Shown: in pieces, positions 35,792-37,688 of the stretch
How positions within the stretch are numbered: position 1 is the stretch's first letter
Layout: every line of letters begins with the position of its first letter
Source: an uncultured bacterium
Lineage (GTDB): Bacteria > Babelota > Babeliae > Babelales > JABCYS01
Assembly (NCBI GenBank): GCA_963705705.1
Contig: CAVPKK010000004.1
Location: 24,112-88,111, forward strand
Reading direction: 5' to 3'
DNA length: 64,000 bases
Program-made: the position numbers and the translations under genes
Notes under the pieces: generated by a model
Told to the model about the DNA's origin: nothing
The model's input: only the letters and a program-made list of their open reading frames with translations
Database searches by the model: none

Positions 35792-36895
35792 TTACCAGAG
35801 ATTGGCAAAACGCTCATCAATTTCTTGGCGGCGGCGAGCATCAGCTCCAGGATTGAAATCAAATTTACGATCTTTTTGTTCTTTTTGCTCAGCTTCATCT
35901 TGTTGTCTCTGAACTTCTTTCTGCGCATGCTCAAGGATAAGTTCATATGCATCGCGTATATCATTCCAACGTTCTGGGTTACCACCCTTATCAGGGTGAA
36001 CACGTAGAGCAAGTGAGCGATAGATCTTTTTCACTTCATCGATGGAGGCACCTTGAGCTAGCGGCTGTCCATCAATTTGCTGCGATGCTTTATCAAGAAT
36101 ACGATACGCACGATTGTTAATATATTTGCGCAAAAAATTAATGTGCCATCGCAGCAGAATATCGGGGCTTTCAGTGAGTTGGAATCCAATAGCTCTTTTG
36201 GCCGGTAATAATAGAGGGTTCCACCAGCCATTCGGCCCAAGAAGCTCCATTTCTTCTAGAACAGAATTCCCAAACTGCCCATGAAGGTTACCAAACTGTC
36301 GATTAATAGCCTCATACGCCTGTGGGCCGCCGATCGCCAAATTATTCAATATTTCCTGCACAAACCCTTGTGCCCGAATTCTACGTTCATTAGTGCTTTG
36401 TTGGCCGTGCAAATCATTGATTTCTCTATTTCTATCCCTTATCTCGTTTTCAATCGTCGTCAGTTCCCTAAATTTATTTTCTACCTCACTGGCAAAGCGC
36501 AGTCTTTCCGCTCGTATAGATTGGCTCTTGTTATATAAAAGTTTGATTCCGCCCAATATTCCCAGCCAAATCATAGCATAGAATGGCACGCTGAATGATT
36601 CATGTGTGGCAAAACTCTTTTTCAAAATGGATGCTGTATTTGCATCGCAAAGCTCTTCTGCATATTCAGCTGCCTGCCAATATAATTCTGCATCGGTTTC
36701 ACCATTCGACTTTCCTAAAGCCAGAGCAGTTATCTCAGCTTTATTAACCGCCAGGTAAGAGATCAGACTCTGGTTGTTTTTGACAGCTTTATAGAGGTCA
36801 ACGATATACGGTTTTGGCTGTTGTTCTACAGCTAAGATAGGGGAGATGAATGTTAATGTGCTTAACATTAATGACGCTGTTCTTATATTAAGCAT
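35792..36895 (-). CDS. signal peptide / LYKAV-YAE module / TM / coiled-coil protein with C-terminal J-domain
   Basis: The start is moved to ATG 36895 (MLNIRTASLMLSTLTFISPILA), which overlaps the upstream stop (ATGCTTAA). DLYKAVKNNQSL and LYWQAAEYAEEL. TM FYAMIWLGILGGIKLL. J-domain IDEVKKIYRSLALRVHPDKGGNPERWNDIRDAYELI, with HPD at 35990-35998. Confidence 0.8.
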   Translation of the reverse strand: MLNIRTASLMLSTLTFISPILAVEQQPKPYIVDLYKAVKNNQSLISYLAVNKAEITALALGKSNGETDAELYWQAAEYAEELCDANTASILKKSFATHESFSVPFYAMIWLGILGGIKLLYNKSQSIRAERLRFASEVENKFRELTTIENEIRDRNREINDLHGQQSTNERRIRAQGFVQEILNNLAIGGPQAYEAINRQFGNLHGQFGNSVLEEMELLGPNGWWNPLLLPAKRAIGFQLTESPDILLRWHINFLRKYINNRAYRILDKASQQIDGQPLAQGASIDEVKKIYRSLALRVHPDKGGNPERWNDIRDAYELILEHAQKEVQRQQDEAEQKEQKDRKFDFNPGADARRRQEIDERFANLW

Positions 36896-37688
36896 TAAAT
36901 TGCTCCAAAAGCTGCTCAAGGTTCTTAATATAGTTCTGCAAATTCTTATCAATTTTATTTTTTGTGGTTTGCATTAAATGCAAATTTCTTAGAATAGTCC
37001 GCTCCTGTGTGTGCAACGATTCTCGAGGTTGTTCAGCACTGGCATTAAGCTGATCTCTCTGCATAGAGACCCTGGCAATCTCGGCATCCAACTGTCGTAT
37101 CCAGTCTAGGCCCGTATGTCCATACTTATCAAACATTTCTTTTGCTATTTCATTATCTAAGCCTGACGTTACATCGGCCTGGCGTGAAATAAGAGTCATT
37201 ACAACTATTAATACCACCATGCAACCTGGAGCGTAAACTGTTGTAACCTCAAGGGCATTTAGCCAGCCCGGTGTATTCTTTGCAACCATCTCTCCGGACA
37301 AAAGCGTACTAAATGCTTTTGCGATTTCATCATCACCCTTTTCTCTTGCATATGCAGCCGCCTTACAAAAGATGGCATCAAGCTCAGACTCTTCGCCTTT
37401 AGCTTTATCATATATTGTTACATATCTCTGCGTTAAGACCGTCCAACCATCAAGAGAGTTAATGATGATGTTGATCGTTTCATCATCCCTTAGGAAATCT
37501 ACTTGCTCGAGCAGCACTCCATTGCTCTTAAGCTCGTCAAGGACATCTTTTACGCTTTTATATAGTGATATTGCGTGTGAAGAGTACTGCTCTATTGGTT
37601 TTTCAACCGCATGCAGGACAGAGGAAAAAGGGAATAGAAAAAAAAGAATTAATAGTAACGATTGTGATTGATACATGTAACGCACCAT
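36888..37688 (-). CDS. signal peptide / LYKSV-AAYA module / TM / coiled-coil protein
   Basis: The long track ORF is trimmed to ATG 37688 (MVRYMYQSQSLLLILFFLFPFSSVLHA). SLYKSVKDVL and IFCKAAAYAREKG. TM VYAPGCMVVLIVVMTLI. Coiled-coil tail. The start is uncertain (37676 is also possible). Confidence 0.6.
   Translation of the reverse strand: MVRYMYQSQSLLLILFFLFPFSSVLHAVEKPIEQYSSHAISLYKSVKDVLDELKSNGVLLEQVDFLRDDETINIIINSLDGWTVLTQRYVTIYDKAKGEESELDAIFCKAAAYAREKGDDEIAKAFSTLLSGEMVAKNTPGWLNALEVTTVYAPGCMVVLIVVMTLISRQADVTSGLDNEIAKEMFDKYGHTGLDWIRQLDAEIARVSMQRDQLNASAEQPRESLHTQERTILRNLHLMQTTKNKIDKNLQNYIKNLEQLLEQFNA

Follow-up and report, generated by a model that had tools for sequence, protein, structure and literature searches.

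An overlapping gene pair encoding a predicted membrane-anchored J-domain protein and its distant paralog in a Dependentiae genome

The J-domain cassette

The DNA analysed here, referred to as the window, is a 64,000-nt stretch of contig CAVPKK010000004.1 (assembly GCA_963705705.1). On its minus strand lie two overlapping genes: the downstream one (B-type; its product is called the J protein) encodes a predicted membrane-anchored protein ending in a J-domain, and the upstream one (A-type partner) encodes a protein that profile comparison identifies as a distant paralog. A sequence-only reading of the window had described a membrane-anchored J-domain protein coupled to a family paralog; this description was borne out, and pairing, coupling and the HPD motif were also found to be conserved in related genomes. 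The features of the pair are given below, using open reading frame (ORF) coordinates that include the stop codon, domain assignments from Pfam and helix assignments from AlphaFold2 (AF2).

35792–36895, minus: B-type J-domain gene, intact ORF, 367 aa
36824–36895, minus: predicted Sec-type signal peptide, aa 1–24, MLNIR... SPILA, followed by VE
36593–36814, minus: conserved helical carrier module of ~75 aa, aa 28–101, with motifs YIVDLYKAVKN and LYWQAAEYAEE
36533–36589, minus: single hydrophobic anchor, aa 103–121, VPFYAMIWLGILGGIKLLY, then a K/R-rich stretch; Kyte–Doolittle 1.56–1.69
36335–36532, minus: coiled-coil stalk or long helix, aa 122–187, charged, heptad-like sequence
36071–36334, minus: conserved middle region, aa 188–275, …GFVQEILNNL…LEEMELLGPNGWWNP…
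35918–36070, minus: J-domain, aa 276–326, Pfam PF00226; HPD at aa 300–302, nt 35990–35998
35795–35917, minus: charged C-terminal tail, aa 327–367, D/E/K/R at 20 of 41 residues (49%), helical by AF2
36888–37688, minus: A-type partner gene, 266 aa, directly upstream of the J gene
37608–37688, minus: signal peptide of the A-type partner
37254–37583, minus: helical ectodomain of the A-type partner, longer than that of the B-type
37188–37244, minus: strong transmembrane segment (TM) of the A-type partner
36888–36895, minus: 8-nt start/stop overlap of the two genes, ATGCTTAA, with the A stop TAA at 36890–36888
36903–36906, minus: Shine–Dalgarno GGAG of the J gene, 7 nt upstream of its ATG

The J gene was taken to start at the ATG at 36895–36893. 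A TTG-initiated alternative would give 386 aa and appears unlikely, because GGAG lies 7 nt before the ATG and the ATG product shows the signal-peptide pattern of its relatives. Signal peptides were called by eye. In the J protein, a basic n-region leads into a hydrophobic core, Pro occupies −5 and a small residue −1, and cleavage is predicted between ILA and VE; the pattern M-x-basic-hydrophobic-P-x-x-A/G was present in all 8 B-type members. Around the anchor, 4 K/R residues were counted in the 15 aa after it and 2 before it. Its insertion energy was estimated at +4.2 kcal/mol, which is marginal; with the same crude hydrophobicity sum, B-type anchors ranged from +1.1 to +7.5 kcal/mol (marginal) and A-type anchors from −0.5 to +3.1 kcal/mol (strong). 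Lipoprotein anchoring was considered and ruled out, as no member has a lipobox before a Cys.

Two AF2 models of the J protein were built, the first with a predicted local distance difference test score (pLDDT) of 51.5 (5 poorly aligned sequences) and the second with 64.9. The carrier module was modelled as four helices (pLDDT 63–89), followed by an unbroken helix at aa 104–187; fold searches with the module returned weak TPR-like matches alone, at probability ≤ 0.5. The middle region was modelled with low confidence and gave no Pfam match, and it aligns with two homologs, P0010 and the fragment at 4722–5087 of contig L083 (both introduced below). Scans for promoters and terminators around the cassette scored no higher than on shuffled sequence, a hairpin in the 3′ intergenic region after the cassette was not significant (z = −1.2), and G+C stays close to 43% across the window, the J locus included.

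Quality and affinity of the J-domain

The J-domain was recovered by Pfam DnaJ (PF00226) at 34.2 bits against a curated cut-off of 27.8 (aa 280–325), and its homologs scored 54.4, 44.6 and 39.6 bits. Besides DnaJ, no significant domain was found in the J protein by the Pfam scan, which otherwise returned two chance-level matches (E 0.02–0.03). The earlier claim that the 367-aa product ends in an HPD-containing J-domain and a highly charged tail thus holds, and the peptide quoted for it is present. Helix II is basic (KKIYRSLALRV); in alignment with E. coli DnaJ and human DNAJB1, the basic helix II, the HPD and the W/F..I..AY..L core of helix III are all retained. Loss of HPD in orthologs had been named as a result that would refute the sequence-only reading, and HPD proved invariant in 7 of 7 J-bearing family members. 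In the AF2 model the J region reached pLDDT 76–86 and superposed on DNAJB12 with a root-mean-square deviation of 1.7 Å over 62 columns; Tim14, T. thermophilus DnaJ and a Plasmodium Hsp40 were further structural matches. Foldseek assigned these J-domain matches probabilities of 0.85–1.00, though with non-significant E-values. Judged by these data, the J-domain is genuine and looks functional.

Affinity within the superfamily was assessed by scoring against known J-domains and curated models. When the window J-domain alone was searched against the PDB, human DNAJB1 scored 35.6 bits, and DNAJB1, DNAJA1 and Sis1 ranked above E. coli DnaJ (22.9) and CbpA (16). A six-member family J profile gave DNAJB8 63.9, DNAJB6 60.1, E. 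coli DnaJ 56.9, DNAJB2 56.1 and CbpA 38.8 bits. A eukaryotic origin of the J-domain, at which the single-sequence ranking had hinted, was dropped, since the family profile failed to reproduce it. The best NCBIfam matches of the J protein are bacterial DnaJ models, and it lies far below the NCBIfam cut-offs for DnaJ and CbpA; NCBIfam DjlA (PRK09430) gave no match at E ≤ 0.1. Clustering with DjlA or CbpA types, which together with action on DnaK alone would have made the protein an ordinary co-chaperone in the sequence-only reading, was accordingly not seen: DjlA is unmatched, and CbpA trails both DnaJ and DNAJB6/8 in the profile. By these scores the J-domain is canonical class A/B-like, and not of the DjlA, CbpA or HscB type.

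The A-type partner and the junction

The A-type partner carries a short coiled tail after its TM and is without an effector domain. Automatic gene calling places the start at 37946 (352 aa). Each of the seven A-type homologs, however, begins at the signal peptide, in agreement with the start at 37688 (266 aa) chosen in the sequence-only reading, and the 86-aa extension (37689–37946) is probably not translated. With the start at 37688, a divergent intergenic region of 266 bp precedes the acetyltransferase gene at 37955.

Paralogy of the two products is beyond the reach of pairwise comparison: BLASTP of the A-type protein against the J protein showed no similarity (E 8), and a hidden Markov model (HMM) of the RING-cluster modules described below did not detect the A-type protein of the window (E 9.6). 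Once homologs were added, hhalign of 8 A-type against 11 B-type modules gave a probability of 95.7% and E 1e-8 over 69 columns, with both signature motifs aligned; modules were trimmed with the motifs as anchors, which may slightly flatter this alignment. The A and B HMMs each weakly match the other class. The A-type partner itself scored E 6.9e-29 against an A-module HMM that includes that protein, and its window-external homolog on contig L084 (243 aa) was matched at E 4e-5. A- and B-type proteins are, on this evidence, distant paralogs detectable profile-to-profile only, as the earlier description of the upstream gene as a paralog had assumed. The paralogy concerns the ectodomain; a J-like region in A-type partners was sought with Pfam DnaJ, which gave no match, and with the family J-HMM, which matched none among the ORFs of the window or related loci.

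The overlap of the J-gene ATG with the upstream stop had been read correctly from the letters. The same 8-nt ATGNNTAA/GTGNNTAA geometry was found in three related cassettes, four counting the window, namely at the two junctions ATGGTTAA and GTGGTTAA on contig L086 and at ATGAATAA on contig L085. On L084 the genes share a 4-nt ATGA overlap, and two cassettes have a gap of 12–13 nt between A and B in place of an overlap. Each B start is preceded at 4–8 nt by a Shine–Dalgarno-like GGAG, GAGGAG or AAGGA, located within the A gene or right behind it. Because the junction geometry is kept while the encoded residues differ between cassettes, the comparison points to selection for coupled, roughly equimolar synthesis of A and B, and an A–B complex may therefore be formed.

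Distribution and evolution of the cassette family

Related proteins were collected by searching 1.84 billion cluster representatives exhaustively with a HMMER profile, which returned eleven matches at E ≤ 1e-3, about nine of them true members; the J protein scored 98.7 bits in this search, and E 1.5e-31 against the B-module HMM. Four of the eleven are the window's own proteins, among them P0007, which is paralog S (described with the RING-bearing siblings). P0005 is a homolog of paralog R1 on the syntenic contig L002. Each of the new relatives P0008, P0009 and P0010 ends in a J-domain with HPD, and P0013 ends in a RING finger; P0011 and P0012 are repeat proteins and were judged spurious. The contigs of the relatives come from the genome with the closest RadA (85% identity, see below) and a few metagenome assemblies. 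P0010 is a collinear full-length homolog of the J protein (29% identity over 338 aa, E 1e-28).

Eight cassettes were examined, and in each an A-type gene stands directly upstream of a B-type gene; in the related loci the pair is met about seven times. A-type proteins (150–266 aa) share a signal peptide, the longer helical ectodomain (motifs VSLY..K..Y.QL and Y.A..YA..GD), a strong anchor and a short coiled tail; B-type proteins share a signal peptide, the YVVDLY…YWQAAEYA module, an anchor, a coil and either a J-domain or a RING. The cassettes are, with numbers giving protein lengths in aa:

Window: A266–B367 (J)
L084: A243–B316 (J)
L086: A196–B217 (J); A191–B333 (RING); A~150–B298 (RING)
L085: B221 (J); A204–B295 (J)
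L083: A183–B229 (J); A234–B (J, frameshifted in the assembly)

Further searches returned nothing beyond these. In a word-index search of 5.8e9 proteins, the J protein matched only itself; such searches gave 1–2 proteins per query and missed the query's own paralogs, so that their negatives need care in fast-evolving families. The J protein had no match in a genome collection of species representatives, tblastn against plasmids gave no match, and a scan of 241 million metagenome records with back-translated YWQAAEYA gave 9 matches, none belonging to the family (glycosyltransferases, a SAICAR-synthase-like ORF and non-coding sequence). For the carrier module and the A-type partner, no Pfam or NCBIfam model and no confident structural match were obtained, and no published description of module, A-type partner or cassette was found in the literature searched. 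Within these collections the A/B cassette family is specific to a small clade of Dependentiae, and the pair of coupled membrane-protein genes is previously undescribed.

Divergence within this clade is fast. Between the genomes whose RadA proteins are 85% identical, the long-form J proteins are 29% and their A-type partners 22% identical. The cassette sites differ as well, with ABC permease and acetyltransferase genes as neighbours here and alaS and skp in that relative. On L002, the syntenic contig of another relative (ENA ERZ25039473 contig_374), window positions 35740–38141, containing the J cassette, are replaced by 14 bp. Taken together, the family's rarity, its mobility and amplification in tandem, and the fast divergence of sequences that keep their architecture are what would be expected of host-interaction genes.

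Several observations on the related loci were made in passing. L002 is also without window positions 27758–32301, a segment of 4.5 kb with paralog R2 and three signal-peptide or coiled-coil genes (28279–28848, 30081–30752 and 30793–31881). In four loci from different genomes, family arrays lie directly downstream of a TLC/NTT transporter gene, and the arrays themselves differ; the TLC genes are located as follows:

Window: 22209–23612 (array from 23731)
L086: 2552–4075
L083: 879–2352
L002: 1480–2907

Both L002 and L083 (ENA ERZ2503xxxx) contain split genes (MutS, ABC ATPases, TLC and the B-type J gene at L083 4412–5359), pointing to a frameshift-prone assembly or to genome decay, and the fragmented L083 J gene still reads HPD. 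In P0009 (L085 1373–2260), a Gly/Phe/Ser/Asn-rich linker, GGGFGGFNDFDDDFFGGDF…, occupies aa ~155–225 before the J-domain; the linker resembles the G/F region of class A/B J-proteins, which is found on the other side of the J-domain.

RING-bearing siblings

Three further members of the family are encoded on the plus strand of the window:

23731–25221, plus: paralog R1, 496 aa, carrier module, TM, coiled coil and C-terminal RING finger
27229–27942, plus: paralog S, 237 aa, carrier module, without a C-terminal domain
28857–30017, plus: paralog R2, 386 aa, carrier module, coiled coil and C-terminal RING; zf-C3HC4_3 at 25.4 bits

An HMM built from these three RING-cluster modules alone matched the J protein at E 1.4e-7 (25.7 bits), with no other ORF of the window better than E ~1, in agreement with the earlier claim that the J-domain sits on the N-terminal module of the RING proteins. 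The J-bearing P0009 is a case in point: its module shares 71% identity with the module of P0013 (RING), 62% with that of the RING member of 298 aa and no more than 42–49% with the modules of other J-bearing members, so that module similarity does not follow the C-terminal head. Beyond the module, P0009 and the RING members remain alike across the anchor and the initial portion of the coil, after which the likeness ends; the C-terminal domain has therefore been exchanged on one chassis.

Against the PDB, the RING profile scored best with RNF4 (31 bits, E 1e-6), followed by TRIM21, RCHY1, AMFR, RNF8 and Mdm2. An arginine after the last Cys pair (C-x2-C-R) and the hydrophobic residue of CP[IV]C are conserved; we take the former to be the E2~ubiquitin-priming 'linchpin' of active RING ubiquitin ligases (E3s) and the latter to be the E2-contact position. 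In these respects the RING looks like an active E3 of eukaryotic type. A RING E3 requires E2~ubiquitin, which is found in the host cytosol, and the C-terminus of the carrier should therefore reach that compartment.

Two side observations concern this cluster. R1, S and R2 have an extra Gly-rich hydrophobic segment (…YG[IL][IMV][DE]G) between signal peptide and module, which is missing from the J subfamily. A 669-aa protein with MutS domains III/V is encoded between the RING-family paralogs at 25223–27232 (plus), with boundaries that abut or overlap theirs (25221/25223; 27229–27232), and has a hydrophobic, signal-peptide-like N-terminus that is odd for a MutS-type ATPase.

Source organism

The window contains two TLC nucleotide-transporter genes, murA and radA. 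The best genome match of RadA was at 85% identity in DAIDHG01 (GCA_027452085.1, a metagenome-assembled genome), and the next ~60, at 56–68%, were mostly Babeliales, Dependentiae or TM6, by which the source bacterium is assigned to Dependentiae/TM6. An origin in Chlamydiae, hinted at by the TLC transporter and a weak UPF0242 match, was ruled out by these RadA relatives. Of the chlamydia-like infection framing implied earlier, the lifestyle is roughly right, and the lineage was corrected.

Cultured Dependentiae are obligate intracellular parasites of amoebae and flagellates, and signal peptides are found on 44% of the proteins of one species (PMC6561590, PMC4378268, PMC4776705). The ankyrin and ubiquitin-related proteins of the phylum that are predicted to be host-directed typically carry Sec signal peptides, and Sec and type II only were detected as secretion machinery (PMC4378268, PMC6561590). 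Outer-membrane vesicles were described early in infection by a relative (PMC6561590). The Babela paper mentions a RING protein and three DnaJ-domain proteins restricted to B. massiliensis, without analysing them further (PMC4378268).

A dispersed repeat of ~115 nt was also noted in the window, with two long copies, 75% alike, at 13185–13296 and 3666–3781 and cores of 21–25 nt at 33099–33123, 34761–34781 and 57618–57640; on L002, related copies occur at 8796–8890 and 9940–9977. A role as a small mobile or regulatory repeat is conceivable.

Interpretation and alternatives

The domain identities, the family, the conservation of the pair, the geometry of coupling, the retention of HPD and the J/RING swap are established here. 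For the function of the cassette, where the sequence-only reading had offered host Hsc70 or bacterial DnaK as partner, we favour, at about an even chance, a reading in which the J protein targets host chaperones, its C-terminal domain lying in the host cytosol and recruiting host Hsp70. The swap of J and RING on one chassis is the reason to place the C-terminal domain on the host side. The functional-looking J-domain, the conserved pairing, the intracellular lifestyle of Dependentiae (with two TLC transporter genes in the window) and the evolutionary pattern of the family also speak for this reading. A and B would be synthesised in roughly equal amounts and associate via coiled coils and the paralogous ectodomains. 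The B-type protein would sit in a host-facing membrane by its anchor and extend stalk and J-domain into the host cytosol. There, the HPD J-domain would dock ATP-bound host Hsp70/Hsc70 and trigger ATP hydrolysis, by which host chaperone activity would be concentrated at, or diverted to, the surface or compartment of the parasite, with clients possibly held by the conserved middle region. In this scheme we infer the heterodimer of A with B, the means of export, the location on the host side and which Hsp70 is engaged.

Several points weigh against it. No route is known for such a protein across the outer membrane into a host membrane. A Sec signal peptide and one anchor with K/R after it form the textbook signature of an inner-membrane protein and point to a C-terminus in the bacterial cytoplasm, and if every hydrophobic segment of R1, S and R2 crosses the membrane, the extra one would give these proteins an orientation opposite to that of the J subfamily. 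The RING falls just below the Pfam cut-offs and its third zinc ligand is non-canonical. The family J profile places E. coli DnaJ nearly level with human DNAJB6/8. DnaK can be driven in vivo by J-domains that come from eukaryotes, with helix II and HPD as the common binding surface (PMC1906734), and the Hsp70 partner can therefore not be read from sequence. The phylum is, moreover, reported to be without type III and type IV secretion systems (PMC4378268). The contrast of marginal B-type with strong A-type anchors and the outer-membrane vesicles of the relative may bear on the question of export.

The predicted topology would also fit if the J protein were a DjlA-like inner-membrane co-chaperone that recruits the bacterium's own DnaK to the membrane, with the signal peptide cleaved, the module in the periplasm beside the A-type ectodomain, the J-domain in the cytoplasm and a role in envelope stress or membrane-protein quality control. 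We regard this alternative as less probable than the host-directed one and still deserving serious attention. K/R enrichment after the anchor in all B-type members (predicted type I topology), the strong TM of the A-type partner, the near-equal profile scores of bacterial DnaJ and eukaryotic class B proteins and the bacterial DnaJ models as best NCBIfam matches all agree with it; Dependentiae retain a full chaperone set together with lineage-specific DnaJ-domain proteins (PMC4378268), and membrane-anchored bacterial J proteins, DjlA, DjlB and DjlC, exist (PMC8215388). It leaves unexplained, however, why RNF4-like RINGs with the post-ligand arginine sit on near-identical carriers, given that there is no E2 in the bacterial cytoplasm, and why sequence turnover is extreme, with tandem amplification and presence/absence polymorphism; a match to a DjlA model and a TerB-like central domain are both missing. 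A membrane-anchored J protein encoded beside a paralogous partner also brings to mind the J-subunit of a translocation motor, in which the A/B pair would stand beside a channel and the J-domain would recruit Hsp70 to pull or hold polypeptides, as do Pam18/Pam16 at TIM23 and Sec63 at the ER (endoplasmic reticulum). Tim14 of the Tim14–Tim16 complex (2guz) was among the best structural matches to the J region, and family arrays adjoin TLC transporter genes in four loci. The Tim14 match is, however, a generic J-fold one with non-significant E-values, the partner is without a J-like domain, unlike Pam16, no channel gene is consistently linked to the cassette, and RING-swapped siblings make no sense for a motor; we consider this reading improbable.

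That the gene is a decaying or non-functional lineage-specific one, with J-domain and overlap as leftovers, we hold to be very improbable. The J protein was an orphan in the word-index search, the cassette is missing at the syntenic site in a relative and some copies in relatives are fragmented; yet the 367-aa ORF is intact and has a good Shine–Dalgarno sequence, all key residues of the J-domain are retained, HPD is invariant across the family, and a full-length collinear homolog at just 29% identity indicates that purifying selection has long acted on the architecture. The fragmented copies are found solely on contigs with many split housekeeping genes, and assembly error is the probable cause. 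The weight left over from these four readings was assigned to none.

A wider proposal, which we put forward tentatively and regard as unlikely to hold as a whole, extends the host-directed reading: the cassettes would form a Dependentiae-specific, Sec-dependent two-component system that plants interchangeable RING or J heads of eukaryotic type in a host-facing membrane, with the strongly anchored A-type protein serving the marginally hydrophobic B-type protein as its dedicated escort, co-anchor or partner in insertion. If true, it would provide a counterpart of the Inc proteins without a type III system, and the first membrane-tethered bacterial J-domain effector hijacking the Hsp70 of a protist.

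Dependentiae are widespread, almost uncultured parasites of protists, and we know of essentially nothing on their host manipulation beyond counts of ankyrin-repeat and ubiquitin-related genes. The cassette offers a testable unit in this respect, in which a small carrier module comes with its own partner gene and bears a ubiquitin-ligase or Hsp70-recruiting head. Should the heads act in the host cytosol, the system would show how a bacterium reported to have Sec and type II only displays proteins to its host and would identify host Hsp70 as a target in the phylum. Should the J-domain act on DnaK, the RING siblings become the puzzle, and a RING in the bacterial cytoplasm needs explaining. Either outcome on the partner of the J-domain is informative.

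Comparison with known systems

By model, motif and fold, the J protein is a member of the J-domain superfamily. It stands outside DjlA, class A/B DnaJ/CbpA, the Pam18/Pam16 type and the Inc proteins, as it lacks defining features of each. The DjlA analogy drawn in the sequence-only reading stands in part. Like DjlA (E. coli, class C), the J protein has a single anchor near the N-terminus and a C-terminal HPD J-domain, and if its C-terminus stays in the bacterium it would likewise recruit DnaK to the inner membrane. The N-terminal TM of DjlA, however, stays uncleaved; DjlA also lacks a periplasmic domain of notable size, possesses its own central domain and is encoded by a single conserved gene of housekeeping type. 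Foreign to it are the cleavable signal peptide, the ~75-aa ectodomain, the stalk, the coupled paralogous partner, the RING-swapped siblings and the fast evolution seen here; in the J protein the anchor lies ~100 aa in, behind an N-terminus resembling a cleavable signal peptide. The layout also differs from class A/B DnaJ or CbpA, as the J-domain is C-terminal instead and no DnaJ_C or Zn-finger match was obtained with Pfam.

Bacterial J-domain effectors are, to our knowledge, very rare, with HopI1 as the standard example. HopI1 of Pseudomonas syringae is a soluble, chloroplast-targeted type III effector with P/Q-rich repeats, the C-terminal J-domain of which acts on host Hsp70. The placement of a C-terminal J-domain on a non-chaperone N-terminal region is common to both proteins and makes HopI1 the main precedent for the host-directed reading. 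The J protein differs in its Sec signal peptide, membrane anchor and partner gene and in belonging to a phylum reported without type III secretion (PMC4378268), and the resemblance described here is one of domain order. Pam18/Pam16 (Tim14/Tim16) resemble the cassette as a membrane-anchored J protein working with a paralogous partner; the paralogy of Pam16 lies in a degenerate J-like domain, whereas here it lies in the ectodomain.

Under the host-directed reading, the family would resemble chlamydial Inc proteins in being parasite-encoded, fast-evolving and rich in coiled coils, with an anchor in a host-facing membrane and domains shown to the host cytosol. Inc proteins have a bilobed hydrophobic hairpin and use type III secretion; the hydrophobic segments of the present family are ~80–130 aa apart (aa 6–24 and 103–121 in the J protein), and the first is a cleavable Sec signal peptide. 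The order of signal peptide, luminal domain, TM and cytosolic RING in eukaryotic E3s of the PA-TM-RING type (PMC4021871) is shared by the RING siblings, which differ in being bacterial-encoded with signal peptides of bacterial type and in an ectodomain unrelated to the PA domain by Pfam scan (no match). Set beside such type I TM RING E3s, the J protein presents the same chassis with another cytosolic head.

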